From a virus: a stretch of DNA of 64,000 nt. The translations under genes and the position numbers were made by a program. Within the stretch, counting starts at the first letter, position 1, and each line of letters begins with the position of its first letter. The DNA lies in IMG/VR virus record IMGVR_UViG_3300025383_001098; one strand, given 5' to 3'. A model generated the notes under the pieces. That model was given only the letters and a program-made list of their open reading frames with translations. It did not search any database and was not told where the DNA came from. Below are positions 31,794 through 47,411 of this stretch, piece by piece.

Positions 31794-32627
31794 ATGAAAA
31801 AATTAATCACGGTTGTTGCCCTGGCCCTTGTTGCTTTAACCAGCACTCAAGTGTTTGCATGGAATCAACGCCAGCCAAATCCAGTAGCACAATGCCAAGT
31901 ACACGCACCATATGGATTGCCAAATGTACAAGGTAATATCCAACCAATTTGCCGCGAAGCATATTTGGTAGGTTACGATGCTCCAGCAAAACTACCACGT
32001 TTTGTTATGTGGACATTAACACCAGGACATGCATTAGGTTGCGTAGCTCGTTCAAACGCTTTCGTAGCAGATGCTTCAGTTCCTAACGGTGCTGTTCCAG
32101 GTGACTACGCAGGTACAGGTTACGACAAAGGACATATGGCTCCAGACGGTGACCAATCATGGGATCAACAGGTTGAATATGAATCATTCTTGATGACCAA
32201 CATGAGTCCACAAGCCGGCTCATTAAACCGCGGTATTTGGAAGCTATTAGAAACTTCGGTGCGTGGTTGGGCATTCCAAGGCGGTCACAACTTTAACATT
32301 GTAAGTGGCGGCATTTACTCACAAGGTGATAAAGTAATTGGTAAGGGCGTTGTAGTTCCACACGCTTTTTACAAGATTGTTATTGATGAAAACACAGGAC
32401 AATATGCAGGCTGGATGTTCCCACACACAGCACCATATCCTAACTTGGGCAACGATTTAACCAAGTTCCGTATGCCAGTAGCACAGATCATGCAACAAGC
32501 TGGTGTTGCTTTTGTTATTCCAAAAGGTGCAACAGAACTACAACCGGGTAAAGAATGGCCTGTAGATTTTGGTGCATTAACCAACGCTAAACGCAAACTC
32601 TGCGGTGCTAATGCTTCTGTAGACTAA
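31794..32627 (+). CDS. Secreted DNA/RNA non-specific endonuclease (NucA/EndoG family)
   Basis: Signal peptide; YDKGHMAP, F.MTNMSPQ...NRG.W..LE and VP.AFYK. Confidence 0.92.
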   Translation: MKKLITVVALALVALTSTQVFAWNQRQPNPVAQCQVHAPYGLPNVQGNIQPICREAYLVGYDAPAKLPRFVMWTLTPGHALGCVARSNAFVADASVPNGAVPGDYAGTGYDKGHMAPDGDQSWDQQVEYESFLMTNMSPQAGSLNRGIWKLLETSVRGWAFQGGHNFNIVSGGIYSQGDKVIGKGVVVPHAFYKIVIDENTGQYAGWMFPHTAPYPNLGNDLTKFRMPVAQIMQQAGVAFVIPKGATELQPGKEWPVDFGALTNAKRKLCGANASVD

Positions 32628-32688
32628 TCAACTAAGTCTACGATAAATAATAGGGTAAACAACATTTACCCTATTTTTTTGACATTTT

Positions 32689-35514
32689 ATGCGTTTATCT
32701 GAAATTAGAACCCTATTAGAACAACAACTTGATGAGCTCAAGATGAGCCCTTCGAGTCTTAATACTTTTGCTCACAGTGATGCGGCCAAAGGTATTATGG
32801 CAGGGTTTGAAGCAGAATTAGTGTTTACCGGCATAGGTGGCGAACCTGAATATGACGAAGATCCCGAACCCGACTACGATGCCGATGAACGTTGCCGTAG
32901 CATAGATGATGTTATAAACTTCTTTGAATACGATGAGTACGGCTACGGTACCAGTGGCCGTGAGTTAGAACGACTACGAGATGATTTAGACGAAAAGTAC
33001 ATGGAATGGATGGATGAAAAGATGTACGACGACTGGCGAGACCAGCGTGATGATCTAATTAAAGAAAAGTGGTTAGAAGAACGTCCATGGGAAGAGCGTA
33101 TACACGCTGCTCTGGTAGATGGCTTAGATCTATCCGACGAAGAAGCCGACGCTGTTGAAGAACTACACAGTCGTATGGAGAGAAAAGAAATACGCGGCTC
33201 AGAAATGACCGAAGAGCAGTTAGAGATGATTACTCATTATAGCGAAGCTCGTGGCATTGCCGAGGATGTACTCAATGAGGATGTTGAACAAACACTAAAC
33301 AACGAAGATGGCTTTTACGACGAAGTGTTAGATGAGTTCCGTAGTGACTTTTATATGGATGATGACAGCAGTTTCTTTGATGATGTTGGCCTACGGTGGA
33401 TGAGTGACGTTGCTAACGAATTTAATCTAATGTGGCCGGTTATTACCTATACTGGTAGTAGCAATGAAGGCGGTTGGAATCAAGATGAAGCCGAACGCTT
33501 GGCCGATGACTTACATGAGCGTATGGGCGTTAAGACTAAAGTGTCTGGCGGATATCACTCAGCTACTCGGGATGACGAAACTTGGATTTTTGAACCAGAC
33601 TCAAGTTTAGACTCAGACGATTCAGAAAACATGGCTATGGAGATTGTTAGTCCGCCAATGCCACTGGAACAATGTCTGAAGTTCATGGAAGACTTCTTTA
33701 CCTGGGCTGAGGACAATGGCGCATACGCTAACAGTTCAACTGGTTTCCATATGGGAGTTAGTTTGCCGCATAGAGGCGGCGATGTTGACTATGTTAAGTT
33801 GGCCTTATTCTTAGGCGATGAATATGTGTTAAAAGATTTTGGTCGCTCAAGTAATCACTTCTGCGAAGCTGCAATGAAAAAGATCCGCCAACGTGTTAAA
33901 GGCAACGATGAAGCCATTGGCGGTGCATTAGAATTGATGCGTAGTAACTTATTAGAGTTAGCGCAAAAAGCTCTCGAGATCAACAATCATGGGTTTGGCA
34001 AGTATACCAGTATCAATCCCAAGGGCGGAGTAGACTCTACACAGCCACACAAACAACGTGGCGCCAAGTATATTGAATTCCGTTCAGCTGGTGGTAGCAA
34101 CTACTTCGAAGACATTGATAAATTAAAGAATACCCTGCTACGTTATGCACAAGCAATGGTAGTAGCCGGAGATCCTGCTGCATATCGTAACGAATATTAC
34201 AAGAAGTTATACAAATTAATAGCGCCAACTGGCGACTCGGCATTAAATTTATTTGCTCAGTTTGCCACTGGCGAAATATCAAGTACAGAACTTAAAAAGG
34301 CCTGGGCCGACAAACAGTTAGAAAAAGAGCCAACAGGCAATTGGGTCTTATACGATGCCAACGGCAAACGTGTAGAAGGTCAAACCTATAACGGGTATAC
34401 CAAAAGCGAAGCTTGGGAACGTGCTCATAAAAAGATCAGTCCCGGCGGTAGTATGGAAGGCTTCCAGAAAGAATACCGGTTATTGCCATCAAACTCTGAA
34501 ACCGGAGATTGGGAAGTCTACGACGTCAACACTGGTGAGACTTTAGAAGTCTTACGTGGATACGAAACACGCGGTCGTGCTGCCGATGCAGTTTATGACA
34601 AATACGCTGGACAAGGTATTGGATTTAACTTACGCCCAGTAGAGTCCGATGAGCCAGAACCTGAACTGACCAAACGTGAGCGCCTTGCTAAAAACATTAA
34701 AGCGGCTCCCCCAGAAGAAATTAAAAACTGGCGAGTTTACGATACTAAGACTGGCGAAGTACACTACGAACAAGAAGGTCGTAAGAGTAGCTTAGTACAG
34801 ATAATGCGTAAGTTTGAACGCGACAACAAATTACCACAAGGTCGTCTTGCTATTCAAGAGTTACCTAAAGATCCTGATAAACAAAAACAAGACTGGGACG
34901 TTGTTTACACACCAACAGGTCGTGTAATTGATAACATACTCAAAGTTGACAAGGTTGAAGCACAACGATTATTAAAACAAGTAGCCACGCTACATGACTT
35001 TGAAAACGCCGACAATTTAGAAATTAGACCAAAAGCATCTAACGATTCAGCTAATGGGGTACAAGACACCAATGTTAATGTAGAACAAAACTTTGCCACA
35101 CCACCAAGAGGCTTTTTAACACAGCCTCCTGCAACTGGCGACTACTACGAAGTTAAGTCCGGTGATAGAGTTTATGGATATGTAACAACGCAAACTGCTA
35201 CCGACAATACCAGAAGTGTTCCAATTGAAGTTAAAACGTATATCAATCAATTAACTGGACGTGATGACGCACATTTAGTGTACCGTGCGGGAAATACTCA
35301 ACCAGCAAATGCTAATGAAAGCATTAAGGTAACCCCAGTACAACCAACACGTCAAGATCCAATGCGTACCAAATACGGAACAGTACCGCGTAAAGACGAT
35401 CCTGCTCCTGCAACTCAACTGCCTGTTGCCAAGAAAGAAATAAGCAAAGGTCAGTTAGATGCAATGATCAAACAGATACAAATAGCAAGAAAATTAGGTG
35501 ACAGTAAGCAATGA
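32689..35514 (+). CDS. Large amidoligase (COOH-NH2 ligase type 2) domain protein
   Basis: GFEAE, D.SL, EIVSPP, NSSTGFH, KY.SIN and IEFR motifs; acidic insertion; repeated W.VYD..TGE modules. Confidence 0.78.
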   Translation: MRLSEIRTLLEQQLDELKMSPSSLNTFAHSDAAKGIMAGFEAELVFTGIGGEPEYDEDPEPDYDADERCRSIDDVINFFEYDEYGYGTSGRELERLRDDLDEKYMEWMDEKMYDDWRDQRDDLIKEKWLEERPWEERIHAALVDGLDLSDEEADAVEELHSRMERKEIRGSEMTEEQLEMITHYSEARGIAEDVLNEDVEQTLNNEDGFYDEVLDEFRSDFYMDDDSSFFDDVGLRWMSDVANEFNLMWPVITYTGSSNEGGWNQDEAERLADDLHERMGVKTKVSGGYHSATRDDETWIFEPDSSLDSDDSENMAMEIVSPPMPLEQCLKFMEDFFTWAEDNGAYANSSTGFHMGVSLPHRGGDVDYVKLALFLGDEYVLKDFGRSSNHFCEAAMKKIRQRVKGNDEAIGGALELMRSNLLELAQKALEINNHGFGKYTSINPKGGVDSTQPHKQRGAKYIEFRSAGGSNYFEDIDKLKNTLLRYAQAMVVAGDPAAYRNEYYKKLYKLIAPTGDSALNLFAQFATGEISSTELKKAWADKQLEKEPTGNWVLYDANGKRVEGQTYNGYTKSEAWERAHKKISPGGSMEGFQKEYRLLPSNSETGDWEVYDVNTGETLEVLRGYETRGRAADAVYDKYAGQGIGFNLRPVESDEPEPELTKRERLAKNIKAAPPEEIKNWRVYDTKTGEVHYEQEGRKSSLVQIMRKFERDNKLPQGRLAIQELPKDPDKQKQDWDVVYTPTGRVIDNILKVDKVEAQRLLKQVATLHDFENADNLEIRPKASNDSANGVQDTNVNVEQNFATPPRGFLTQPPATGDYYEVKSGDRVYGYVTTQTATDNTRSVPIEVKTYINQLTGRDDAHLVYRAGNTQPANANESIKVTPVQPTRQDPMRTKYGTVPRKDDPAPATQLPVAKKEISKGQLDAMIKQIQIARKLGDSKQ

Positions 35515-36218
35515 GAGCTCGCGACTTTGTTAAAAATAATGTAGCCTACCACAATAGGTTAAATCCTATTGCCTGGGACGGCACCGAGTTGCGTACTGAA
35601 GTTCGCGAACGTCTATTAGAAATTGCTCAAGTGTTTGAACAATATTTAGAAATTCCCGGATTCAAAGTACATGACATTGTGTTAACCGGAAGCCTGGCCA
35701 ATTTTAATTATACCAAGTACAGTGATTTTGACCTACACGTTGTTACCGACTATCAAGAGTTACAATGTGATGACGTAGCCGAAGCATTGTATCGTGCTAA
35801 AAAAGAAATTTGGAACAACCAGCACGACATCACAATCCGCGGACATGAAGTAGAGTTATATATTGAAGATACTGCCAAGCCTCCTGTGTCAGCTGGTATG
35901 TATAGTCTACTCAATAATCAATGGATCAAAGAACCCAGTTACGATCCTCCTTCGGTTGACGATTCTGCGGTAAACGCTAAAGTAGCTGATCTTATTAAAC
36001 AAATTACTTCGGCAATTGAAACAGCTGATGATCCACAAGATTTAAAACGCATCAAGGACAAGTTACGCAATATGCGTCGATCGGGGTTAGACAGTGAAGG
36101 CGAATTTGGTGTAGAAAATTTAGCATTTAAAATCCTACGTAACCAGGGCTATCTTGATCGACTAAATGACGCATATCTAAATCAACAAGATCAAGCATTA
36201 AGTTTAGAATCTCACTAA
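35511..36218 (+). CDS. Pol-beta superfamily nucleotidyltransferase
   Basis: TGSLAN.NY..YSDFDLH and VELY motifs. Confidence 0.8.
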   Translation: MRARDFVKNNVAYHNRLNPIAWDGTELRTEVRERLLEIAQVFEQYLEIPGFKVHDIVLTGSLANFNYTKYSDFDLHVVTDYQELQCDDVAEALYRAKKEIWNNQHDITIRGHEVELYIEDTAKPPVSAGMYSLLNNQWIKEPSYDPPSVDDSAVNAKVADLIKQITSAIETADDPQDLKRIKDKLRNMRRSGLDSEGEFGVENLAFKILRNQGYLDRLNDAYLNQQDQALSLESH

Positions 36219-36242
36219 GTTAGTACTCACTAACCTACCAAA

Positions 36243-36271
36243 GACCCTACTAACAGTAGGGTTTTTCTTTT
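36243..36271 (+). terminator. Rho-independent terminator
   Basis: accctact-aac-agtagggt plus T tract. Confidence 0.8.
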
Positions 36272-36273
36272 GG

Positions 36274-36302
36274 TTGACCATAAAATCCCATTTTGTTATA
36301 AT
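36274..36302 (+). promoter_or_regulatory. Early promoter
   Basis: TTGACC-17-TATAAT. Confidence 0.8.
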
Positions 36303-36332
36303 ATAGTTTGTAAATTACAAATGGAGCATTCT

Positions 36333-36662
36333 ATGTTAGAAAAAGAATTAGAAACTAAATCAGCTGGTTATTATGCCTATGCCGCTTCACGTGATGCTTC
36401 AATGAAATCTTTAATTGCCAGTACTCACTATACTGAAGCAGAAAAAATAACAGCCGAACGAGTTAAACTTGGACTTGAACATGTTTATTCTGCTCGTGGT
36501 GTTTATATTACATATCGTAAAAAATTCATCAGTATTAAACTGGATCAGCCTCGTGTTCGTGATCGTGTTAATTTACGTTTACTTGAAGAGGAATATGCAT
36601 CTAAGGGTTATGTTAAGGCATCAACTGAACAGGGTATTACATACCGTATTCCAAAATTATGA
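36333..36662 (+). CDS. Hypothetical early protein
   Basis: ggag SD before ATG 36333. Confidence 0.65.
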   Translation: MLEKELETKSAGYYAYAASRDASMKSLIASTHYTEAEKITAERVKLGLEHVYSARGVYITYRKKFISIKLDQPRVRDRVNLRLLEEEYASKGYVKASTEQGITYRIPKL

Positions 36663-37132
36663 TATTGGTATTGTTACTGCTAACCTCTGCTTGGATGTTC
36701 TTTTATCTCAAGAATAGCGAAACATTTTGGATCGTGGCCTGGCCCGGTACTGTCATGCACGAAACCCTACACTGGACTGTTGGCAAAGTCATGGGTGGTA
36801 ATCCAACCAAAATCAGTGTATTGCCAGAAAAAGATTCAAGAATAATTGGCTATGTGAACTTTGCCAACATTACCTGGTTTAATTGTGTTCCAATCAGTAT
36901 GGCACCAATGTTGGGCGTACCGGTTGCTTGGTTGCTGTTTCATTATTTGCAACCCATCGATTTTACCTGGATCGGTGCTGTAAAATTCTGGGTTATTTCG
37001 GCTACTTTGGCATCCAGCTGGCCCAGCTCTGTAGACTTTAAATTAAGTGCCAGACACCCCGAAGGATGGCTATTTTGGGGCGGTTTAGCGGTGTTGTTTT
37101 TAGGCAACAAATATTATCACTTTTTTGGTTGA
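36659..37132 (+). CDS. M50-like membrane metalloprotease
   Basis: PGTVMHETLH, multiple TMs, S.AP and PS..D. Confidence 0.7.
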   Translation: MILVLLLLTSAWMFFYLKNSETFWIVAWPGTVMHETLHWTVGKVMGGNPTKISVLPEKDSRIIGYVNFANITWFNCVPISMAPMLGVPVAWLLFHYLQPIDFTWIGAVKFWVISATLASSWPSSVDFKLSARHPEGWLFWGGLAVLFLGNKYYHFFG

Positions 37133-37183
37133 CCCATAATTCGGTATTTGCTATAATATTACATATAGTTAGAAATTAGGAGC
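37127..37183 (+). repeat. 57-bp early promoter-leader-RBS cassette, copy 1
   Basis: Identical to 47476..47532. Confidence 0.92.
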
Positions 37184-37187
37184 CGAA

Positions 37188-37400
37188 ATGTTTGAAACTT
37201 GTGTAGATCAATTAGTTAAGGTAACACTTACTAATGAGCCTGTAAAATGCCAGTGGTTCAATGGTACCTTGTTTGTTTGCACCATTACTGAAACCCAAGC
37301 TCGTCAGGTATTTCATCGTTTGAGCGAAAGTTTGGGTCTGGGCAAGGTTCAAATCAATGCCATTGGCGACACCGGCGAATATGCCTTTGATTTTGTTTAA
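37188..37400 (+). CDS. Hypothetical early protein
   Basis: Strong promoter and aggag SD. Confidence 0.7.
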   Translation: MFETCVDQLVKVTLTNEPVKCQWFNGTLFVCTITETQARQVFHRLSESLGLGKVQINAIGDTGEYAFDFV

Positions 37401-37409
37401 GGAGCGGAT

Positions 37410-37685
37410 ATGATTAACATTGTTGACATTCGTAGTGCTATTGTAGCAGGTCAGTTTACCAATGCTGAATTAGATACTATTACCCAGGCAATTACTTTTG
37501 CCCGTACTCAGATAGCTCGCAAGAATACCTGTGTATTCCGTAAAGGTGACTCTGTCAAGTTTACATCAAACCGCAATGGTCAAGTTTACCAAGGTACAGT
37601 AGACAAGGTTAATATCAAGAACATTTTGGTCCGTACCCACGTTGGTGTGTATCGCGTACCTGCTAATATGTTGGAGAGTGTATAA
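37410..37685 (+). CDS. Hypothetical protein with KOW/SH3-like C-terminus
   Basis: KGDSVKF....G....G.V.KVN.K...V. Confidence 0.65.
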   Translation: MINIVDIRSAIVAGQFTNAELDTITQAITFARTQIARKNTCVFRKGDSVKFTSNRNGQVYQGTVDKVNIKNILVRTHVGVYRVPANMLESV

Positions 37686-38158
37686 TGGGAACTCGTTCAA
37701 GTATTGCTGTCAAACACGGCACTCGTATCAAGGCAGTCTACTGCCACTGGGATGGTTATTTGGACCACAACGGACGCATCTTATTGGCTTTTTATGACTC
37801 AACTAAGGCCAATAATTTAGTAGCATTAGGCAACATCAGTTCCTTGGGTGCTGACATTGGTTCGAAGCATTCGTTTGATCAAACCACAGAAGAACGAAAC
37901 TATTTCAACCTTGGTCCAACCAGTGTCAGTTCGGAAACAACTTTTTATGGTCGCGATCGCGGTGAACTCAACCAAGAGTTTCGATCCTTTGCCAGTGAAG
38001 AGGAATGGATTAGCCACATGGATGGATCTGGGTGTGAATACTTCTATCTAATGGATTCTGGAGTTTGGTATGTCAGTGAGTACGGTCGAGATCTGGTACC
38101 ACTACACGAAGCAATCGAAGAATCGGATCTCGCAACCAAAGTAGAAATCAAGGAGTAA
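37685..38158 (+). CDS. Conserved phage protein (YCHWDGY type)
   Basis: MGTRS.I...YCHWDGY...G..L. Confidence 0.7.
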   Translation: MGTRSSIAVKHGTRIKAVYCHWDGYLDHNGRILLAFYDSTKANNLVALGNISSLGADIGSKHSFDQTTEERNYFNLGPTSVSSETTFYGRDRGELNQEFRSFASEEEWISHMDGSGCEYFYLMDSGVWYVSEYGRDLVPLHEAIEESDLATKVEIKE

Positions 38159-38160
38159 TC

Positions 38161-38286
38161 ATGCAACTAATTATTGGAATCATTTTGGGTATTATTATTG
38201 CTACCATTGGCGTACAAGGCGTGGCCAATATTGCTCAAACGGGTGTAACCAAAATTCAAGCTGTGGCTAAAGAAGCTGCCAAGTAA
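38161..38286 (+). CDS. Small membrane peptide (41 aa)
   Basis: aggag SD; hydrophobic N-terminus. Confidence 0.55.
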   Translation: MQLIIGIILGIIIATIGVQGVANIAQTGVTKIQAVAKEAAK

Positions 38287-38413
38287 TTTTGGTAAAAGAA
38301 TTTCATATTTTAGGTTGACTCTAAATTCGAATCAGTCTATAATATGAAATATGTTGGAGTGTGTCCAGCATTATTTAACTGTAGTTTTTAACTTAAAAAT
38401 GGAGTGTTTTAAA

Positions 38414-38755
38414 ATGGATAAGCAATTTAAAGTTGGTGGTGTTTCTAAGACTAAGGGTCAATACAAGGTGCGTTTTGCAACTGATATGACTCGTGTTAAA
38501 ATCTTGGCTAAGACTGATAGCGATATCAATCTTATGGAATTGCCAAAAGCAATGACCAAGCCAGAGTTGGTAACTTTCTTGAAGTCTACTGACTTGTATG
38601 CTAATGCTGACTATCGTGCTGCTATTGATGCCGCTGATACTAAGTACAACGGTGTTGGTGTTGTTAAAGCATCTGGTGCTAAGGTTAAGGCTTCTAAGCC
38701 TTCCTTGGAAGCAATCAAGGCTCGTGCCGCTTCTAAAGAAGCTGTAGCAGAGTAA
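38414..38755 (+). CDS. Basic hypothetical protein, probably highly expressed
   Basis: Promoter TTGACT..TATAAT at about 38315-38343; ggag SD; strongly biased codons. Confidence 0.7.
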   Translation: MDKQFKVGGVSKTKGQYKVRFATDMTRVKILAKTDSDINLMELPKAMTKPELVTFLKSTDLYANADYRAAIDAADTKYNGVGVVKASGAKVKASKPSLEAIKARAASKEAVAE

Positions 38756-38782
38756 TAATACTGCTGGGGGATAAAACCCCCA

Positions 38783-38945
38783 GCAATATTGGTAAGTGTT
38801 TGAGACGTAAAGAGGGTATCGTTTGTGGACGCACAGACTCATGAAGGATAGGGCCATCTTACCCTTCTGATAAAACCGTGTCAATGGCTAAGGACTGGAA
38901 GCACCGGACTCCAAAATTCGACTCTCAAACATTTTCCAATATTGT
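38783..38945 (+). ncRNA. Candidate structured ncRNA A
   Basis: 23-bp closing stem (one mismatch, two G-U pairs) enclosing several hairpins; intergenic. Confidence 0.55.
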
Positions 38946-39054
38946 ATAGGAGTTATTATGCCTAAAATTTTGTTAAAAGAATTACCATACTATGTTGTTT
39001 GGCGCATTAAACAGATATTAAAACAACTCAAACTTCAAACTAAATAGTTTTACC

Positions 39055-39234
39055 ATGGATAAGAAAAAGCCAGTTTCTGGATACTACTACTCCGAAAAGG
39101 AGTGGGCAAGGTTGGGGTGTGGCGCACTACCACCAGAACGTGATCGTGATCGCGAACATGCTAAAAATCATCAAGAAGCAGCCGCACGTGGTAATCCAAA
39201 AATTGATGGCAATATTGTAAAAGGATACAATTAA
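39055..39234 (+). CDS. Small hypothetical protein (59 aa)
   Basis: Open frame MDKKKPVSGYYY; upstream TAAATA. Confidence 0.5.
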   Translation: MDKKKPVSGYYYSEKEWARLGCGALPPERDRDREHAKNHQEAAARGNPKIDGNIVKGYN

Positions 39235-39329
39235 ATGTTTACCGCTTTTGCAGTATTGTTGATAGGAAGTGTATTAATTTACATTATGATTGAAGTCAAA
39301 GACTGGATCGACAACGATCAGCAATAAGT

Positions 39330-39442
39330 AAACTTTCTGAGTAGCTACAATGGAACACCGAAATACTTGTCAATGTCGACCATGAACAAGGACCGGCCAT
39401 GAAGAGCAGGGCTATCGCGGATTCAAGCGCCACAGAGAGTTT
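39330..39442 (+). ncRNA. Candidate structured ncRNA B
   Basis: aaactttctg/cagagagttt closing stem with nested pairings. Confidence 0.4.
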
Positions 39443-39447
39443 TCTTA

Positions 39448-39770
39448 TTGTTGTAATTCCTTTGTAGTGAAGGCATTGTGGACCCGGGTTCGATTCCCGG
39501 CATCTCCACCAGAAAGTGTATTAGCCACTTAATACATAAATGCGGAGTCGTACCGGTACACCTTCCGCGGGTTAGCATAAGGTTCGAAACTTATGTGTTA
39601 ATACACTTTCTAATGGGGATGACAAGGTTTCGACATGGTGAGATAGCGAACAAGGCAACACGAGAGGTCAACTCGTAAAAAGCAAAAAAACGTAAACGCA
39701 AACGACGAACAGTTCGCATTAGCGGCCTAAACACCGCTTAGGGCAGGAAATGCCTCGTAACAGAAACAAC
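39448..39770 (+). ncRNA. ssrA: Circularly permuted (two-piece) tmRNA; tag ANDEQFALAA
   Basis: T-arm and acceptor 3' end ...ccgggttcgattcccggcatctccACCA (ends 39511) lies upstream of the canonical 5' end GGGGATG (39615). 7-bp acceptor stem with G3-U; tag ORF 39698..39730. Confidence 0.93.
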
Positions 39771-39794
39771 CAGCCCCTTCGGGGGCTCCACTTT
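39771..39794 (+). terminator. Hairpin ending the tmRNA transcript
   Basis: agcccc-ttcgg-ggggct; weak T tract. Confidence 0.55.
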
Positions 39795-39803
39795 ACAATT
39801 TCA

Positions 39804-40937
39804 ATGATCCACTATCAAGTCAACAATAAACAGATTTACAATCCGTATCTTGCTTACTACGAAAGTTTTCAGAGTGGAAAGCCTGTACAGTTTTATTGTC
39901 ACGATGCAGAATATGATCAGCTGGATTGGACTCAAGAACCTGCAGAATCGTTTGAAACGTTAATGGATCAACACGCACACCGTCTGCGTGACCGATATGA
40001 AAGATTAATTTTAGCCTGGTCGGGTGGCACTGATAGTCATACTATATATAATGTTTTCAAACGCAATGGTATACATATTGACGAAATTCTGTACAAAATT
40101 GATACCAGTCTTTGGCGTACAACAAATGGTCAGTTAATCCAAGACCCCACCGATCACTTGAATTGGTTAAAGGCAAATCACTGGGATCCAACTACTCGTA
40201 TCACCAGTTATGATGAGTATACCACGGATCTTAAAGGCATAGATATTCGCAATGACGAATGGATTTTTCAAAATCGCGGAGATCTTGGAAAATATTTTGC
40301 TGTAGGCACTGGCGGTGAAGCCACTAAGTTTTTATGCGAACGTAATCATGCCGGGCATCATTGGGGACTTGTAGTTGGGTACGAAAAGCCTTTTGTTTTC
40401 AAACGCAACGGGTCATGGTATTCAAGACAAAGTGATGTTTTATTAAATAGTGTGTTGGGTCAGCCCAACGTTGAATCTTTTTTCCTGGAGCCAATGCTAC
40501 ATTTAAAACAAAGTCACCTGGCCAAACGAGTACTGAAACGATTTCAAAATATTGAAAATTCAGAAAACTATGCTACTGTAGTTAACCCAAACGGATTCCC
40601 GGGCGGATATAAAATATGGGCTTCGCTATTAGGCCGGCATGATGAGTTGTCCGACGGAATAAGTATCAATGGAAAATTTATTATAACTCATATGAAAGAA
40701 TTTGCAATAGATTCATCTGTTAATATTGGTGATTTGAATAACCATTATGCCGACCCTTCTCTGTTGGGCAGATTGAAAAAGGATAATAAAATTGCTGTAA
40801 ACTATGTTAAAGGCCTGTATAATCTTGCAAGCGAACATAGATTTTATGAATTTTTAAATGAAAATTTTTTAGCAGAACCAGGGAAAGTGTTTAAATTAAA
40901 AACAACCTGGTCTAAGGAATACAATCTTGGGGAATAA
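39804..40937 (+). CDS. PP-loop (adenine nucleotide alpha-hydrolase) ATP pyrophosphatase, paralogue 1
   Basis: DW..EP......L....A..LRD.Y..L.L..SGGTDS; start reassigned downstream of the tmRNA. Confidence 0.75.
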   Translation: MIHYQVNNKQIYNPYLAYYESFQSGKPVQFYCHDAEYDQLDWTQEPAESFETLMDQHAHRLRDRYERLILAWSGGTDSHTIYNVFKRNGIHIDEILYKIDTSLWRTTNGQLIQDPTDHLNWLKANHWDPTTRITSYDEYTTDLKGIDIRNDEWIFQNRGDLGKYFAVGTGGEATKFLCERNHAGHHWGLVVGYEKPFVFKRNGSWYSRQSDVLLNSVLGQPNVESFFLEPMLHLKQSHLAKRVLKRFQNIENSENYATVVNPNGFPGGYKIWASLLGRHDELSDGISINGKFIITHMKEFAIDSSVNIGDLNNHYADPSLLGRLKKDNKIAVNYVKGLYNLASEHRFYEFLNENFLAEPGKVFKLKTTWSKEYNLGE

Positions 40938-41907
40938 AGTGACACGATCAATCTTATCAGTTGTAATATTTTTACTCAGCAGTATTGCAGTAGCTTCACC
41001 AGTGTTCAATGCCAAAGGTGAAAATATTGAAATTATAGTTCCATACGCTGTAGGTGGTGGTACCAGTAATCACGCACACTTGGTAGCCGAAATGTTTAGT
41101 GACTATGGGTGGCCAACTGTGGTTATAAATCGCCCAGGCGGCGATGCTGTAATTGGAGCAAATGCGGCAGCACGGGCACAACCTAATGGACGTACCTTAA
41201 TGGTTGCAGCCACCAGTGCAATGTCAGCCAATGTTGCATTTGGTGCTACTGGCATGGAATACAACGAGCACAGTTTTGTACCAGTTAGTCTTTTAAATCA
41301 ATTTGGCATGGTACTGGCTGTTCCTGCCGATAGTCCAATTAAAAACTATGAACAATTTAAATTTTATATACGGGCTAACCCAGAAAAATTTAATATTGGA
41401 TTTCATAATGGCCCGTTGAGTAATATTTTTTATGAGTGGGCCCGCGAAGAAAACCTTCCTCGCCCTAACATTGTTATCTACAAAGGATCGGCTCCAATGG
41501 ATACTGACCTGGTTGGTGGGCATATTCCTTTTATATGGGATAACTATACTGCGCCATTGATTCCGTTAATTGAAAGTGGTCGGGTTAGAGTAATAGCCAC
41601 AATGGATTCGGTATCGCTGTCTGCAATTCAACGTATACAGCCCAATGTTGATGTTGCTGATGTTAGTCGACAACATCCTGATTTACGTTTTGGAGTTTAT
41701 TACGGATTATTTGCTCCAGCCGGAACTCCACCACAAGTTGTGGCCGAAATGAATCGCGTAATAAATCAAAGTGCAAAAACCAGCAAATTCCAAAAAGAAA
41801 TTGTGACCATGGGTATTAAAAACATCGGGGGTCGCCCAGAGGTATTGGGCAATTTACAACAGCGTGACATACAGACATTAAAAAAATTACCAAAAGAAAA
41901 TCGTTAA
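40927..41907 (+). CDS. tctC: TctC/Bug tripartite tricarboxylate transporter solute-binding protein
   Basis: Signal peptide; IIVPYAVGGG, NRPGG...IG, YKGSAP...DLVGGH and GLFAPAGTP. Confidence 0.88.
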   Translation: MGNKVTRSILSVVIFLLSSIAVASPVFNAKGENIEIIVPYAVGGGTSNHAHLVAEMFSDYGWPTVVINRPGGDAVIGANAAARAQPNGRTLMVAATSAMSANVAFGATGMEYNEHSFVPVSLLNQFGMVLAVPADSPIKNYEQFKFYIRANPEKFNIGFHNGPLSNIFYEWAREENLPRPNIVIYKGSAPMDTDLVGGHIPFIWDNYTAPLIPLIESGRVRVIATMDSVSLSAIQRIQPNVDVADVSRQHPDLRFGVYYGLFAPAGTPPQVVAEMNRVINQSAKTSKFQKEIVTMGIKNIGGRPEVLGNLQQRDIQTLKKLPKENR

Positions 41908-42621
41908 ATGAAACAATGGTATGAATACCAGCTGGCAAATCAAGTGGCTCAACCTGAGTTAAATCAGCTTGATTATTTGCCAGTGGCTAATTTATCTCAC
42001 TTGTGCCCGTTGCTGGAGCCGTTAAAAAATCTCAAAGATAAATCGTATTTCAGAAATTTTTGGAAAGATGCAAATTATGCCGAGCTGGCTGCACTCAACA
42101 CCGGTGGAGCAGTATCTGAACAGCAGATCTCAGACTGGTTGTTTAACGATCCCGAAACCAAAGAATCTTCGGAAAATACCGGTATCAATTATATAGAAGT
42201 ACCTGACGGTATCAGAGCTCTTGTAATTGATGATATTGCTCAGCTGGTACAGGCATCACCAGAAGAAATAACTTTAGTAGTCAATTTGCAATTACCCGGT
42301 CAATATCTTTCCATGCACGTTGACCGCCTCAAATACGAAGAAAACGGTCTACGTCGTACTGACGATACCAATACTCCCTACAAGCGATTGCTCATGTTCA
42401 TGGATGACTGGCAACATGGGCAGGCCTTCCAGATTGGCGATAACTTTTTAAAATGGCGGGCCGGTGATGTTTACCAATGGTCATCAGAAAACGTGTATCA
42501 CGGCAGTTCAAACTTTGGATTCTACGATCGCTATGTACTAAGGATCGATGTTAATTATCCACATGAATGGCGCACGGATGCACAAAAGAATCAAAATAAT
42601 ATAACCCGAGAACAACTATGA
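41908..42621 (+). CDS. 2OG-Fe(II) oxygenase-like protein
   Basis: PGQYLSMHVD...DDWQHGQ...W.AGD...HGSSN.G...R; similar to 18885..19403. Confidence 0.7.
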   Translation: MKQWYEYQLANQVAQPELNQLDYLPVANLSHLCPLLEPLKNLKDKSYFRNFWKDANYAELAALNTGGAVSEQQISDWLFNDPETKESSENTGINYIEVPDGIRALVIDDIAQLVQASPEEITLVVNLQLPGQYLSMHVDRLKYEENGLRRTDDTNTPYKRLLMFMDDWQHGQAFQIGDNFLKWRAGDVYQWSSENVYHGSSNFGFYDRYVLRIDVNYPHEWRTDAQKNQNNITREQL

Positions 42622-43580
42622 AAAAATACTTATTAGTGGCCTTGGCCATACTGTCATGTTCTGCCTATGCTTGGCAACCTGATAAAAATACCCCCATTAC
42701 AGTAATCACCGGTTACCCAGCAGGATCCAGTAACGAAATTATCTTTAGAAAATTAGCAACCGTTGTTACAGCCAATACTGGAGTAAATTTTATTGTTAAA
42801 CCTAAACCCGGTGTTGACGGAATCATTGCAATGAATGAATTGTATGATTCAAAACACGATGGATATTCTGTTGCCGTTCCAAGCATACCAACATTGTTTG
42901 TTGTTAATGATATTTCAAATAAAAATCTTAAGAAATACTCTTGGGATAGTTTTGCCACACCTATTGTAATAGGACAAACTCCTCTCGCAGTTATTGCCAG
43001 TGCAAAAAATCCTGTGACAAATTTTAAACAGTTAACGGATCTTTTAAAAACAACCACACAACCTATTAACATAGGACAAGCCGGCGGCACAATACGTGTA
43101 GCATATGAATATTTGATGCACGAAACCAATGGCAATAAAAAAATGGTCAAAGACATTGGCTACAAAAGTTTTCCGCCAGAGATTGCCGACGTGGTTGGGG
43201 GACAAATTGATTTTGGTATTACTACATTAAGTAGTGTTTATCAAATAGCAAAAGACGGACGAGTACGAATTCTTGCCATTACCGAAGAATCTTCTAACTC
43301 GACTGAGTTTCCAAAAACCTATACCACGCTACCCAACTATAAATTTTCTACCGGATACTTGTTGGCTTTACCGCCTAAAACTGATCTTGAAATTCAGCAA
43401 TGGTATTCAAGAGAATTTATTCGTGCCATGCGAGATCCTGAATTTCAGCAGTGGGCAACAGATAATTTGATAACTACAGATATTAACTTAACATCAGACA
43501 TTGCTGTAAAAGCATTTGGAGCACAGATGCGTAAAAAACTGTCTCGAGTTATGACAGAACTAAGAAAAGGAGAAAACTAA
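42618..43580 (+). CDS. tctC: TctC/Bug solute-binding protein, divergent
   Basis: Signal peptide; YPAGSS, KPGVDG.IA, DGYS, YK......DVVGGQID and G.VRILA. Confidence 0.82.
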   Translation: MKKYLLVALAILSCSAYAWQPDKNTPITVITGYPAGSSNEIIFRKLATVVTANTGVNFIVKPKPGVDGIIAMNELYDSKHDGYSVAVPSIPTLFVVNDISNKNLKKYSWDSFATPIVIGQTPLAVIASAKNPVTNFKQLTDLLKTTTQPINIGQAGGTIRVAYEYLMHETNGNKKMVKDIGYKSFPPEIADVVGGQIDFGITTLSSVYQIAKDGRVRILAITEESSNSTEFPKTYTTLPNYKFSTGYLLALPPKTDLEIQQWYSREFIRAMRDPEFQQWATDNLITTDINLTSDIAVKAFGAQMRKKLSRVMTELRKGEN

Positions 43581-44152
43581 TGTGGCCGTACTATAAACTT
43601 TTACCCGATTTACCGAGACCTCCGCAGAAATTTTTTGATGAGGTGGAAGTAGACGTTAATAATTTGCCAAACCAAACTGACATGCATGAAATCAGATATA
43701 GGAATGTTACTCGCGGTAACGAAAAGTTCCTTGCCAGTCCTGCGGTTCGTGTTCCAACAACACCAGAATTTGCACAATGGTTTAAAGAAAACATTGCACC
43801 TAACCCCAAGGATGTTAGTATTAACTACAGACATTGTAACAGTGACACTGGTGGGATTCATACCGACACCACAAGAGAATACAGATTAGCATACAATATA
43901 CTTGACGGTGGTCCCAACTGTGGTGTTATCTATTATCAACAGCACGGGTATCCTTTGATGCGTGAACTTGCAATACAGCACTTAACCTATCACGATGTAA
44001 CTCCAGTGCATAAATTAGTTGGTCCAAACAATGTTTGGTTTTTAATGGATACAAGAATTCTGCACAGTTGCGAAGGAATTGAAAGTCCTCGAGTACAGTT
44101 TGACATTAGCTTTGACACAGAAAGTGTTCCTCAAGAGTGGTTGGTTGACTAA
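43580..44152 (+). CDS. Cupin / 2OG-Fe(II) oxygenase-like protein
   Basis: IHTD..R...L.Y....GG and W...DT...HS.E....R. Confidence 0.6.
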   Translation: MWPYYKLLPDLPRPPQKFFDEVEVDVNNLPNQTDMHEIRYRNVTRGNEKFLASPAVRVPTTPEFAQWFKENIAPNPKDVSINYRHCNSDTGGIHTDTTREYRLAYNILDGGPNCGVIYYQQHGYPLMRELAIQHLTYHDVTPVHKLVGPNNVWFLMDTRILHSCEGIESPRVQFDISFDTESVPQEWLVD

Positions 44153-45405
44153 TGTTTCATCCCTATAGCGACAAAAATAAATTTGGCTACTATACTGTAG
44201 GCAATGTCAATACCTATAGGAAACTTGAAGCGATCGAAATAGGTCGCAAAACCAATCAGCCTGTTAGGTGGAATTTTAATAATGAAGTGTTTTCATCTGT
44301 TGATTGGTCTAAAGAACCCGAAGCAAATCTGTTAGAATTGTATCGTCGGCGAGCACAACAAATTCGAGATTCCTACGACTATGTTGTTGTTATGCTAAGT
44401 GGCGGTGCTGACAGTACTGCCATGCTCAAGAGTTTCTTAGACAACGGTATATACCCTGATGAAATTTTAAGTGCTCACGAACTCAATGGGGCCAAAGATC
44501 CGAATTGGTATTTAACCGGAGAAGTTATAAATTCAGCAATACCTTGGGTACAAAAATATTTAGACACGGGAATTCCTACACGCTATCGAGTGGTAGACAC
44601 ATCAGAGTGGCAATATAACTCTTTGAATAATTTAACAGTCGGAGCAAGAGATGATTCATATTATAATTTTAATAATGTGCATAATCTTGGCATGCTCGGA
44701 CGCTTTAGATTTAGAGAAAACATAGAAGACTATCGCAAGATCATCGACTCCGGGTGCCGTTTGTGTCTTGTTTGGGGAGAACAAAAACCCCGTATATCCT
44801 ATGACCGAACACGTCAATGTCATAAATTTTCATTTAGAGAAGCCAGCCTTGACGCTTATGTTGGTCCAATATATCAAGAAGTAGACCAGCCGGGCTACTT
44901 TGATGAATTGTTTTTTTCAAGCCCAAACATGCCGGAGATTGTAATAAAACAAGCATACGAGTGTTTAAAGTATCTTAGGAATCCCGAACTATTCCCCGAT
45001 ATTATTAAAGATCAATCAACCTTTCCACGAATAATAAACAATCAAACGCCAGGCCTTGGGTTGACCCCAAACGCTGTAGAATTCAAGGTATGGCATCCAT
45101 GGCATAGTAGTGTAGAGACTGTAAAAAAGATTCAAAGTTTTTGTTTAACCAAGGACGGATTACATTCAATAATATATCCTCATATAGAGCCTATTACTTA
45201 CGATCAATTAAAAGGACCAAGATCCGTCGTATACCCCAGAGATGGTTGGTTAGTAAATGCCAATCCAGAAGCAGCTAAAAAATGGTTCCAGGGCTATTAT
45301 TCTAATGTAGTTGGATTACGCTTAGAACAACATCCAACTACACAAGCTCTTGATGTCATGGGCGGAGAATGGTACCTGAGAAATGATTATTATTTGCCAT
45401 TTTAA
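44152..45405 (+). CDS. PP-loop ATP pyrophosphatase, paralogue 2
   Basis: DWSKEP...L.ELY..RAQQIRD.YDY.....SGGADS. Confidence 0.75.
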   Translation: MFHPYSDKNKFGYYTVGNVNTYRKLEAIEIGRKTNQPVRWNFNNEVFSSVDWSKEPEANLLELYRRRAQQIRDSYDYVVVMLSGGADSTAMLKSFLDNGIYPDEILSAHELNGAKDPNWYLTGEVINSAIPWVQKYLDTGIPTRYRVVDTSEWQYNSLNNLTVGARDDSYYNFNNVHNLGMLGRFRFRENIEDYRKIIDSGCRLCLVWGEQKPRISYDRTRQCHKFSFREASLDAYVGPIYQEVDQPGYFDELFFSSPNMPEIVIKQAYECLKYLRNPELFPDIIKDQSTFPRIINNQTPGLGLTPNAVEFKVWHPWHSSVETVKKIQSFCLTKDGLHSIIYPHIEPITYDQLKGPRSVVYPRDGWLVNANPEAAKKWFQGYYSNVVGLRLEQHPTTQALDVMGGEWYLRNDYYLPF

Positions 45406-45487
45406 AAAAAGTTGTCAACTTTCTTGCGACCTTGTGCGTTATATATGTACACAGTGAAAATTGTGTATAACCTAAAAGGAAATTAAA

Positions 45488-45670
45488 ATGAAACAACTTA
45501 TCGCAATCGTAGCATCAGTATTTGCATTATCAGCAATGGCTCAAACAGCACCAGTGGCACCAACTGCACCGGCTAAGGTAGAGAAGAAAGAAGTTGCCAA
45601 GCCTGCAAAAAGCGTACCCGCTAAAAAAGAAGCACCTAAAGCTGACACGAAGGCACCTACCACTAAGTAA
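45488..45670 (+). CDS. Secreted low-complexity Ala/Lys/Pro peptide
   Basis: Signal peptide; acid-shock-protein-like composition. Confidence 0.65.
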   Translation: MKQLIAIVASVFALSAMAQTAPVAPTAPAKVEKKEVAKPAKSVPAKKEAPKADTKAPTTK

Positions 45671-45831
45671 TCACGACGATGACATTATTGTCGATGACGA
45701 TCAGCCCTTAGGGCGAAATCGGTGGAGTCAACAGTTTGGAAAGATTGTTCATGAAAATCGAGAAGAACTGTCAGATTACATACGTGTAAGGTTATTTTTA
45801 GCAAGGGTTAAAGCTCTTCAAAAATACGAAG

Positions 45832-45860
45832 AAGTCTGGGGATAAACTCCAGACTTTTTT
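45832..45860 (+). terminator. Rho-independent terminator
   Basis: aagtctgggg-ataaa-ctccagactt plus T tract. Confidence 0.75.
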
Positions 45861-45981
45861 ATTTGCCCAAAAAGATTGATTTTTTATTATAATAGTATAT
45901 AATGACTACTAATAGAGCATAAGTAAAAGTATATCATTGCTCTAACAAAGTAGTCTAACTAATTGCTCTAAAGGATATAAA

Positions 45982-46338
45982 ATGGCTGGTGTTTTTCAAT
46001 GTTTGAACTGTGGTAGAGATAACCCTGTAAAAGGCGCAAATTATACCAACAAGTATTGTAATAATTTTTGCCAACAACAGCATCGTCGTACTCTGTTAGC
46101 AGAAAAACGTATTGCGGAATGGCAGTCAGGTTGCGGACTATACGTGTGGAAAGAAGTTCCAGACTATATTCAAGACTTCCTAATTCAAGAGCGCGGTCAT
46201 AAGTGCGAAACGTGTGGCATTACAGAATGGCAGGGCGAACCAGCTCCGCTGACCGTAACACAACGAGACAGTGATCCTTATAACAACAAAGAGGATAACT
46301 TAGAAGTGATTTGCTATAACTGCAAGTCACAAAAATAA
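45982..46338 (+). CDS. Zn-binding HNH-fold protein with degenerate active site
   Basis: C..C, C...C, C..CG..EW.G....L and NN...NL...C.NC; catalytic His residues absent. Confidence 0.7.
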   Translation: MAGVFQCLNCGRDNPVKGANYTNKYCNNFCQQQHRRTLLAEKRIAEWQSGCGLYVWKEVPDYIQDFLIQERGHKCETCGITEWQGEPAPLTVTQRDSDPYNNKEDNLEVICYNCKSQK

Positions 46339-46365
46339 TTTCATATTAACTTAAGGAGATGTAAC

Positions 46366-46905
46366 ATGAAAACAATCGGTGATAAATTAGAACATTTTGC
46401 AGTAACAGGCGTTAAGCCAGGTCAACCAGAAGATGCTTTCTTCACAATTGACGAAACAAGCTTCGAAGGTAAATGGAAGGTAATCGTATTCTATCCTAAG
46501 GACTTTACATTTGTATGTCCTACAGAAATTGTAGCATACGACCGACTAAATCAAGACTTTGAAGATCGTGATGCAGTCCTGCTAACTGGTTCAACAGACA
46601 ATGAGTTCTGCAAACTGGCATGGCAAACGGCACACGCAGATTTGAAGAAAATCACTCACAATCAGTTTGCCGATACACAGCGTGGTGAGTTGAGTTTAGC
46701 AGAGCAGTTGGGTGTATTCTATGCTCCAGCAGGTGCGGCACTTCGTGCTACATTCATTGTAGATCCAGACAACACAATCCAACACGTTACTGTAAACAAC
46801 TTGGACGTAGGTCGTAGCCCAGAAGAAACTCTACGTATTTTAGATGCTCTTCAAACTGGCGAACTATGTGCTTGTAATCGTACAGTAGGCGGAGAAACAC
46901 TATAA
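46366..46905 (+). CDS. ahpC: Peroxiredoxin AhpC
   Basis: FYPKDFTFVCPTE, RATFIVD and GELC. Confidence 0.95.
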   Translation: MKTIGDKLEHFAVTGVKPGQPEDAFFTIDETSFEGKWKVIVFYPKDFTFVCPTEIVAYDRLNQDFEDRDAVLLTGSTDNEFCKLAWQTAHADLKKITHNQFADTQRGELSLAEQLGVFYAPAGAALRATFIVDPDNTIQHVTVNNLDVGRSPEETLRILDALQTGELCACNRTVGGETL

Positions 46906-47411
46906 TGGCATTCAACGACACTATCAAAGGTGCGTTGCCGGACTACGCAAAGGACACCAAGTTAAATCTTGATGCGGTCCTATTGCGTAGTACATTGGAT
47001 GCAGATGTGGCTATGGGGTGTGCTGTGGCTGCATTGGCCGCAACCGGCAACGGTAAAGTACTAAGTATCTTGTTAGCAGATGCGCCAGTACACGCAGAGT
47101 CAGCGATGACTGCCGCAAGTATCATGGCACAGAACAATGTATGGTATCCATATGTTGAAATGGCTGATGACGAAAGCCTAAAAGGCCTTCCAGCTCAGTT
47201 ACGCATGAATGCTATTGCTAATCATGGCGGCACAACTAAGAGCAACTTTGAAGCATTTAGTTTGGCCGCAAGTATTGTTGGCAAGTGTCACTTCTGCGTT
47301 AAGGCGCACTACGAAACACTCAAGGCGGAAGGCTATACTGTAGAAAACCTACGCGATATTGGGCGAATTGCTGCAGTAATGAATTCAGTGGCAAAAGTAC
47401 TGAATAGCTAA
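46905..47411 (+). CDS. ahpD: Alkyl hydroperoxidase AhpD
   Basis: LPDYAKD.KLNL, AA..MA.NN..Y and C..C..AH. Confidence 0.93.
   Translation: MAFNDTIKGALPDYAKDTKLNLDAVLLRSTLDADVAMGCAVAALAATGNGKVLSILLADAPVHAESAMTAASIMAQNNVWYPYVEMADDESLKGLPAQLRMNAIANHGGTTKSNFEAFSLAASIVGKCHFCVKAHYETLKAEGYTVENLRDIGRIAAVMNSVAKVLNS

Follow-up and report, generated by a model that had tools for sequence, protein, structure and literature searches.

Location and gene content of the locus

The window, that is, the whole 64,000-nt stretch of viral DNA that was analysed, corresponded to positions 20769–84768 (minus strand) of a 127,215-bp IMG/VR virus record (IMGVR_UViG_3300025383_001098). Because CheckV rated this record as about 35% complete, the genome was estimated at several hundred kb. 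Almost all genes of the window lay on one strand, and the GC content was uniform across it, at about 0.35–0.44. A circularly permuted two-piece tmRNA gene was located on the plus strand, about 39 kb from one end of the window and about 25 kb from the other, and the 127-kb record continued beyond both ends.

Genes with PHROG matches were found on both sides of the tmRNA gene [phrog_36119 (E 6e-52), phrog_1987, phrog_35576 (E 2e-180), and the DNA ligase phrog_114]. The CHASE2-type cyclase encoded at 10643–12697 shared 44% identity over 99% of its length with that of Methylophilales phage Melnitz, and 35% identity with that of Pelagibacter phage HTVC008M. No tyrosine integrase was found in the 127-kb record. 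The T4-type capsid (PF07068) and portal (PF07230) models had no match in the record, but the controls were also silent, and this result was given no weight. DNA of the locus was present in freshwater and lake metagenome runs. Megablast analysis of positions 32000–47000 against 50,697 phage records revealed no near-identical genome, and a search through the neighbouring protein P0001 found no relatives among viral contigs. The tmRNA gene therefore belongs to the genome of a large aquatic phage rather than to the border between a prophage and its host.

Upstream of the tmRNA gene was a gene for a conserved 59-aa protein (39055–39234, plus strand). Tblastn showed this protein, at 59–68% identity, upstream of the tmRNA in other phages of the clade [L004/L138 (two loci of one contig), L010, L022, L105, and L117]; it had no Pfam match. 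The next gene downstream (39804–40937, plus strand) encoded a PP-loop ATPase-like protein with an SGGTDS motif. Its homologue in L104 began at the residue aligned with M19 of the long ORF. The start was placed at the ATG at 39804 and not at 39750, and the gene therefore does not overlap the tmRNA.

Two further ORFs were considered spurious. The 66-aa ORF with a GTG start (39478–39678, plus strand) overlies the RNA gene and had already been dismissed in an earlier reading made from the sequence alone (hereafter the sequence-only reading). This judgement was upheld, as the ORF crosses the T arm, the intervening segment (IVS) and the 5' half, and the IVS was not conserved in L004. The 51-aa ORF (39423–39578, minus strand) spans the non-conserved IVS. 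Neither ORF matched a Pfam family.

Detection and extent of the tmRNA gene

ARAGORN called a permuted tmRNA at 39419–39821 with the tag ANDEQFALAA, and the call was repeated on the whole 127-kb record. In the Rfam searches, RF01850 (beta_tmRNA) matched 39380–39790 with 158.8 bits (gathering threshold 84, E 4.8e-49), covering model positions 1–331 of 331, and RF04321 (tmRNA_permuted) matched 39449–39730 with 145.1 bits (gathering threshold 47, E 1.3e-28), covering positions 1–213 of 213. Both matches were recovered again on the full IMG/VR record. The scores of these detectors are far above chance. The permuted order was present, with the CCA end (39511) upstream of G1 (39615) and of the tag (39698–39730).

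The sequence-only reading had proposed a phage-encoded, circularly permuted two-piece tmRNA and had named ARAGORN and permuted covariance models as the means of checking it. The ARAGORN call, the two Rfam models above their gathering thresholds, and the phage context all confirmed this identification. The limits of the gene were revised. A 3' limit of 39770, as proposed earlier, leaves out the terminal UUCG hairpin (39772–39787), which is part of the beta model. On the 5' side, positions 1–49 of RF01850 and an 18-nt insert were aligned to 39380–39448 with few letters matching. From the RF01850 alignment, this region (39380–39448, plus strand) is a candidate leader, or an extension of the acceptor piece on its 5' side. 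In L004, the conserved 59-aa ORF ends only a few nucleotides upstream of the conserved core of the tmRNA, so that such a leader may not be needed. The acceptor piece would begin at some position between 39380 and 39447.

Structure of the predicted mature RNA

The core of the acceptor piece was located at 39449–39511 (from the sequence, Rfam, and the pair list) and the coding piece at 39615–39790 (from the sequence, ARAGORN, Rfam, and the pair list), both on the plus strand. The acceptor piece thus preceded the coding piece, as had been read from the letters, with ACCA ending at 39511 and GGGGAUG starting at 39615. The acceptor piece contained three helix-2 strands (39449–39453, 39459–39462, and 39474–39480), the T arm (39484–39500), and the acceptor 3' strand CAUCUCC (39501–39507), followed by the discriminator A39508 and the encoded CCA (39509–39511). 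The coding piece began with the acceptor 5' strand GGGGAUG (39615–39621), followed by the D-loop analogue (39622–39633), two helix-2 strands (39634–39640 and 39652–39660), and a hairpin (39661–39675). A second hairpin (39741–39755) was located downstream of the tag, and the terminal UUCG hairpin closed the model.

The two acceptor strands formed 7 pairs, with 39617 opposite 39505, and the G3-U alanine determinant that had been noted earlier was present. The helix-2 pairings of the sequence-only reading were also located in the sequence: inner helix 2 paired CAUUGUG (39474–39480) with CAUGGUG (39634–39640), and outer helix 2 paired UGUUG (39449–39453) and CCUU (39459–39462) with AAGGCAACA (39652–39660). 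The identity elements were intact, namely the 7-bp acceptor stem with G3.U70, the discriminator A within ACCA, the T loop, and the GGUUUCGAC D-loop analogue. A further helix-2 sub-helix (39465–39468 with 39646–39649) contained an A.G mismatch and was 51% paired across relatives.

The window structure was transferred to alignment A2 (MAFFT) of 36 phage genes. In these genes, 79.5% of the cells were paired, compared with 66.4% in shuffles, and none of the 500 shuffles equalled the observed value. The covariation score was 0.365, compared with 0.119 or less for slid structures, and both sides had changed in 44 of the 61 pairs. Outer helix 2 was 93.1% paired with both-side change in 5/5 pairs, the inner 7-bp helix 2 was 98.4% paired with both-side change in 6/7 pairs, and the T stem was 100% paired with both-side change in 2/5 pairs; the middle helix-2 sub-helices were weak (51–67% paired). 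The acceptor stem and the identity letters were invariant in the 36 genes, an invariance that is uninformative because the search pattern had fixed them.

At the hairpin of 39661–39675 and the terminal hairpin, A2 was out of register, with 29% and 44% of the cells paired, respectively. The support for the former hairpin is a reading of an 8-sequence clade alignment, which showed compensatory changes in it; compensatory changes were also present in the clade alignment at the hairpin downstream of the tag. The loop of the 39661–39675 hairpin had no obvious pairing partner by eye, and Rfam models a simple hairpin only at this place. In the mRNA-like part, compensatory change was found in every helix that could be aligned.

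Tag reading frame

The tag frame called by ARAGORN (39698–39727, plus strand) began with the resume codon GCA at 39698 and was followed by the stop codon UAA (39728–39730). It comprised the Ala resume codon, the peptide ANDEQFALAA with its hydrophobic ...ALAA end, and the stop; the frame given in the sequence-only reading was thus intact over 39698–39730. Comparison of the window tag with that of L004 showed 4 differing codons, all of them synonymous, one being a change of stop codon. Position 8 was Leu in 22 of the 23 unique 10-codon phage tags, and 5 different codons encoded it there. The conserved Ala positions of the phage tags used 2–4 codons, and the Ala and Leu positions together used 2–5. 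These patterns argue for a frame that evolves like a translated peptide, under peptide-level selection.

The covarying helices and the synonymous change in the tag together argue for function. As judged from the sequence comparisons, the phage very probably carries a working, circularly permuted ssrA gene that belongs to the betaproteobacterial (RF01850) lineage.

Intervening segment

The IVS (39512–39614, 103 nt, plus strand) was delimited by folds and covariation and is expected to be removed. It was closed by a 14-bp helix (39512–39525 with 39597–39610), contained two inner hairpins (39542–39568 and 39575–39596), and ended in a 4-nt spacer, UAAU (39611–39614), before G1. The fold of 39505–39622 had a z of -3.44 relative to shuffled sequence. 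The closing helix was the best-covarying element of the gene, with both-side change in all 14 pairs and 84.6% of the cells paired in the 36 phage genes. The interior of the IVS could not be aligned even with that of the sister gene L004, and it was conserved in no relative found. The DNA contig of a co-occurring relative diverged from the window exactly after 39511, as would be expected of a hypervariable segment flanked by conserved mature parts.

Cmscan analysis of 39510–39616 against Rfam gave no match at E<=10, and no credible ORF was found in the IVS of the window. A tRNA-like relic was considered, as a T-loop-like GGUUCGAAAC is present in the IVS, but was rejected on the same Rfam result (0 matches at E<=10) and because the ARAGORN run on the record yielded no tRNA gene.

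The IVS ranged from 26 to 117 nt (median 71) in 63 viral loci and from 21 to 46 nt, with simple hairpins, in 27 named bacterial loci, a contrast partly biased by the gap ranges scanned. Since the bacterial pattern scan covered gaps of 20–50 nt, the contrast rests mainly on four strong bacterial genes, which a covariance model had detected with no length constraint and which had an IVS of about 24–42 nt. The sequence-only reading had called the phage gene a compact version; this description did not hold, as the mature parts are of bacterial beta-type size and the 103-nt IVS is about three times as long as the bacterial 21–46 nt.

In other phages, the same slot held different contents: a whole tRNA gene in L003, and, in L004/L020/L028 and L129/L130/L133/L135, short coding frames that are rich in Trp and have a ribosome-binding site. 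The phage IVS was always closed by a covarying helix that started right after the CCA and ended 4–5 nt before G1. A rather doubtful possibility is that the phage IVS serves as an expandable cargo slot, and that the IVS of the window is released by RNase P as a small RNA or sets the timing of tmRNA maturation. In the part of the literature that was available, systematically long, clamped and sometimes cargo-bearing phage IVSs were found only as single cases (PMC11915505). The expanded, helix-clamped IVS is the more interesting by-product of this analysis and the aspect worth further work.

Relatives and phylogenetic analysis

Exact-pattern scans of IMG/VR, which used the T-arm, acceptor and D-loop-analogue letters of the window gene, revealed permuted genes in 67 other contigs. 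The gap between the two pieces was 10–40 nt in 5 of them, 41–69 nt in 27, 70–100 nt in 28, and 101–131 nt in 7. Rfam typing assigned 21 of the 23 typed IMG/VR loci to the beta type, namely L138 (=L004), L139 (=L023), and 19 of the 20 loci of a further set; L131 reached the general model only, and L003 was of the cyano type. Several permuted genes were located on near-complete phage genomes of 159–350 kb (CheckV 94–100%).

A maximum-likelihood tree was constructed, with the IVS removed, from 82 distinct genes, of which 53 were viral and 28 bacterial, the remaining one being the window gene. The window gene was sister to L004 (support 99/97) within an all-viral clade of 9 rows (100/94). Chromosomal genes of Gallionellaceae and Zoogloeaceae formed clades of their own, and the backbone of the tree was unresolved. 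The closest viral genes were L004, with 75% identity over 346 nt, and L017, with 87% identity over 159 nt; the nearest named bacterial genes shared about 72% identity over 123 nt. The position in an all-viral clade therefore indicates no recent host capture. Judged from the tree and these identities, the tmRNA gene has long been part of phage genomes.

Phylogeny had been named in the sequence-only reading as one of the checks, and the gene had been taken there as either host-derived or an independent permutation. In the tree, the gene grouped with beta-type genes, inside the all-viral clade. An independent permutation was not borne out, as the betaproteobacterial model matched the gene over its full length and the gene aligned and grouped with bacterial beta-type genes.

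When 151 genomes of the order of G001 were searched with a covariance model, 8 matches exceeded the cut-off. Four of these were strong permuted genes (138–166 bits), and the other four, at 47–51 bits, were standard tmRNAs according to ARAGORN. The tally of 151 includes G030 (locus L072), which is marked unpublished and enters that tally only. In Herbaspirillum and Stenotrophomonas genomes, a permuted copy was found beside a standard tmRNA.

Expression and proposed mechanism

No smpB gene was found in the record of the window, which is about 35% complete, so that the gene may be located elsewhere in the phage. Among five other tmRNA-bearing phage genomes (four with CheckV completeness of 94–100%, plus the complete Melnitz genome), none had smpB. 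With no phage smpB found, the RNA would therefore have to work with host SmpB.

Public RNA runs were represented by assembled contigs, none of which defined an RNA end. Among 24 runs, 6 were RNA runs with small shares; 3 RNA runs and 1 DNA run were compared. RNA run X19 contained one identical contig of 151 nt (39262–39412), located upstream of the mature pieces. Contigs of a relative, 90–95% alike, were present in RNA run X20, and one of them retained the relative's own 77-nt IVS; this contig may stem from a precursor before processing or from carried-over DNA. RNA run X21 had no matching contig, and no assembled contig of the 3 RNA runs lay over the window's own mature pieces.

A consensus promoter scan of 38600–40000 gave 6 promoter-like sites, compared with 2.8 expected. 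Directly upstream on the plus strand there were only two, both 9-of-12 matches, at 39203 and 39259. No T-rich terminator was found on the plus strand of 38600–40000; both terminator-like matches were on the minus strand. Because no convincing promoter or T-rich terminator flanks the tmRNA gene, it is possibly co-transcribed with its neighbours.

The following mechanism is proposed. A single precursor would be transcribed, possibly together with the neighbouring genes. Helix 2 and the 7-bp acceptor stem would hold the two halves together, a pairing shown by covariation, and the 103-nt IVS would fold back through its 14-bp closing helix, also shown by covariation, stacked beyond the acceptor stem. 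Host RNase P would then cut 5' of G39615, and the IVS tail left on the acceptor piece would be trimmed 3'-to-5' to the encoded CCA (39509–39511). Cleavage is logically required, since charging needs a free CCA end and not one enclosed in a longer transcript. Host alanyl-tRNA synthetase (AlaRS) would charge the RNA by reading G3.U70 and A73, and host SmpB would bring the charged RNA to stalled ribosomes; compatibility of the phage RNA with host SmpB and AlaRS is assumed here. Translation would resume at GCA 39698 and append ANDEQFALAA, which ends in the canonical ...ALAA of a degradation tag. The phage would benefit by keeping ribosomes free in infection, when broken or non-stop mRNAs accumulate or host tmRNA is limiting. 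The synonymous evolution of the tag and the lack of a phage smpB in the genomes searched make a testable model, in which a phage RNA works with a host protein.

Alternative explanations

The gene could in principle be the host's own chromosomal ssrA, present through a prophage with flanking host DNA or through mis-assembly. tmRNA genes are favoured integration sites (PMC11915505), and several short IMG/VR contigs with such genes could be of this kind. The permuted copies beside the standard tmRNA of Herbaspirillum and Stenotrophomonas show that such genes travel on integrated elements. The window gene, however, is separated from the two window ends by about 39 kb and 25 kb, in a window that is itself within a 127-kb record, and has phage-family genes on both sides, uniform composition around it, and no tyrosine integrase in the record. 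Its nearest relatives were all on viral contigs, including the genomes of 159–350 kb with CheckV completeness of 94–100%, and the closest named bacterial genes were only about 72% identical over 123 nt. A chromosomal ssrA is thus extremely improbable here, and this explanation is close to refuted.

Two other explanations accept a phage gene and differ in what it does. The RNA could be a non-working one, which would act as a decoy or inhibitor by soaking up host SmpB or AlaRS or by blocking trans-translation, similar to the RNA of phage DS6A. No smpB was found in the phages examined, so the phage RNA must compete for the host protein, and a DS6A-like molecule is reported to inhibit tmRNA (PMC4131195, PMC11915505). 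Against such a role, the full tag frame, the resume codon and the stop were all retained, all alignable helices of the mRNA-like part showed compensatory change, and the frame evolved synonymously with a conserved ...ALAA end, which would be needless for a pure decoy. We consider a non-working RNA highly unlikely. It is also unlikely, though less so, that the gene works but has its main value elsewhere, the IVS yielding a stable small RNA or the tmRNA replacing host tmRNA that a defence system has cleaved or shut off, an idea that goes back to the sequence-only reading. The length of the phage IVS (median 71 nt in the 63 viral loci and 103 nt here, against 21–46 nt in bacteria, a comparison partly biased by the gap ranges scanned) would agree with this, as would the covarying helix that always closes it, the better fold of the window IVS than of shuffled sequence (z -3.44), and the tRNA or short coding frame held by the same slot in other phages. 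On the other side, the interior of the window IVS was conserved in no relative found, matched no RNA family, and contained no credible ORF, and the link to defence systems is speculation. A functional tmRNA that rescues ribosomes together with host factors is therefore the reading that was retained.

Comparison with known tmRNAs

Two-piece tmRNA of Betaproteobacteria was reportedly described by Sharkady and Williams in 2004, as a 'third lineage'. The window gene and the betaproteobacterial tmRNA (RF01850) had the same gene order, break point and helices, shared the tag style ANDE.FA.AA, and were alignable throughout with the genes of Gallionellaceae, Zoogloeaceae, and others. The window gene differed in being phage-borne, in its identity of about 72% over 123 nt, and in its 103-nt IVS with two inner hairpins.

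Two-piece tmRNAs of phages have been published, with the description of the Melnitz tmRNA by Buchholz et al. 2022 (PMC9004378). According to that paper, 133 unique tmRNAs, 53 of them two-piece by ARAGORN, occur in 402 of 18,146 phage genomes, and permuted tmRNAs are present in 17 of 47 Melnitz-like contigs (PMC9004378). The tmRNA database of Hudson and Williams 2025 contains 79 bacteriophage sequences (PMC11915505). The novelty implied in the sequence-only reading was therefore overstated, as two-piece tmRNAs of phages are in print (PMC9004378) and GenBank already contains phage records in which beta-type ones are annotated. The beta-type phage tmRNA is an already known kind, and the supplementary tables of these two papers, Table S1 with the phages that have two-piece tmRNAs (PMC9004378) and Table S2 with the forms by taxon (PMC11915505), may already include beta-type phage genes or IVS lengths. 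What the window gene adds is a well-supported freshwater example of the beta type to the large aquatic phages that have their own ribosome-rescue RNA.

The tmRNAs of Melnitz and related pelagimyophages (PMC9004378) are phage-encoded and permuted and have a complete tag, as in the window gene. The Melnitz group consists of large T4-like aquatic myophages with a 'viral curli' block, and the cyclase of the window, at 44% identity to that of Melnitz, links the two. However, the Melnitz gene is of the alpha type (RF01849, 106.7 bits) and has a glutamine riboswitch (RF01739) downstream, whereas the window gene is of the beta type and had no riboswitch match at the gathering threshold. Related phages therefore hold tmRNAs of different bacterial lineages, and the tmRNA gene must therefore have been gained repeatedly or swapped. 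The gene may also be usable as a host-lineage marker.

Phage ssrA genes are also present in the Bxz1-group mycobacteriophages and in Bacillus phage G, which likewise depend on host factors but have the standard one-piece order (PMC4131195). The RNA of mycobacteriophage DS6A, described in the same source (PMC4131195), is phage-encoded and host-factor dependent as well, but has a tRNA-like domain only and no tag.

Distant blastn analysis of the gene matched only the 42-nt T-arm/acceptor block in 17 phage records, 16 of them of Stenotrophomonas phages, and several of these records annotate a tmRNA at that place. The Menderavirus phages of Stenotrophomonas [Marzo (MZ326868), Bhz51, Yut2, Yut3, and others] are cultured phages with beta-type permuted genes, and the Marzo gene matched RF01850 with 94.6 bits and RF04321 with 119 bits. 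The Menderavirus genes shared the 42-nt T-arm/acceptor block with the window at 90.5% identity, but their body and tag were distant from those of the window (ARAGORN tag VAANDDSYTVRIAA). In these phages, the gene is embedded between tRNA genes, has an IVS of 57–71 nt, and belongs to another viral clade (L015).

Short ORFs upstream of the tmRNA gene

An ORF of 59 aa was found at 39055-39234 (+) of the window, conserved directly 5' of the tmRNA gene. The tmRNA clade to which the window belongs included five further contigs with a copy of this ORF (59-68% identity), and each copy lay immediately 5' of the tmRNA gene. These contigs were L004 (the sister of the window's tmRNA gene in the tree; fetched a second time as L138), L010, L022, L105, and L117. 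Comparison of the 59-aa ORF with Pfam (39055-39234) gave no match. The ORF could be a partner of the tmRNA gene, or it could be merely syntenic with it. Between this ORF and the tmRNA, a hydrophobic ORF of 30 codons was recognized by eye at 39236-39328 (+), with its ATG at 39236. In a metatranscriptome library from a lake, one contig of 151 nt was identical to 39262-39412 of the window.

3' end of the tmRNA gene

The terminal UUCG hairpin of the window's tmRNA (39772-39787) had no T run behind it in the region 39772-39803, while its counterpart in L004 had one. The next gene began 17 nt after the hairpin, at 39804. A six-gene operon lies downstream, and the window's tmRNA may share a transcript with it.

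Intervening segments of the phage tmRNA genes

In several phage tmRNA genes, the intervening segment contained a ribosome-binding site of the AAGGA type, followed by a short frame that opened with ATG and was Trp-rich or hydrophobic. Such frames were found at the loci L004, L028, and L020; at L129, L133, L135, and L130; and at L012 and L027. The majority had no stop codon ahead of the RNase P site and ran into the 5' end of the tmRNA. The frames of L129 and L130 differed over 23 codons by 9 synonymous and 3 non-synonymous codon differences; this comparison of sequences suggests that the frame in these two intervening segments is really coding.

The intervening segment of L003, a locus on the viral contig IMGVR_UViG_3300026321_000236, was made up of a tRNA gene. 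The permuted tmRNA gene at this locus was of the cyano type (6894-7016; RF01851, 99.8 bits), and its 78-nt intervening segment consisted of a complete tRNA-Asn(GUU) gene (6920-6992 by ARAGORN; sequence and fold inspected). A tRNA within a tmRNA intervening sequence is described in PMC11915505 as a "unique feature" of one MAG; L003 would be a second case.

tRNA genes near phage tmRNAs and additional copies in bacteria

The jumbo phage IMGVR_UViG_3300045996_002337 (L023/L139; 349,660 bp, CheckV 97%) carried a permuted tmRNA of the beta type (110.9 bits). About 0.5 kb from it lay two tRNA genes, both with the anticodon CUA according to ARAGORN (amber suppressor-like, labelled tRNA-Pyl). ARAGORN analysis of the whole 127,215-bp record containing the window found zero tRNA genes.

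Herbaspirillum (genome G003; loci L036/L063) and Stenotrophomonas (G004; L046/L064) each had a beta-type permuted copy in addition to a one-piece tmRNA of the normal kind, which scored 213.5 bits in Herbaspirillum and 193.6 bits in Stenotrophomonas on RF00023. The tags of these permuted copies were unusual, for example ending in ...AYGT, and the additional copy is probably located on a prophage or genomic island in both. In the phylogenetic tree, the viral locus L112 grouped with the permuted copies of Stenotrophomonas.
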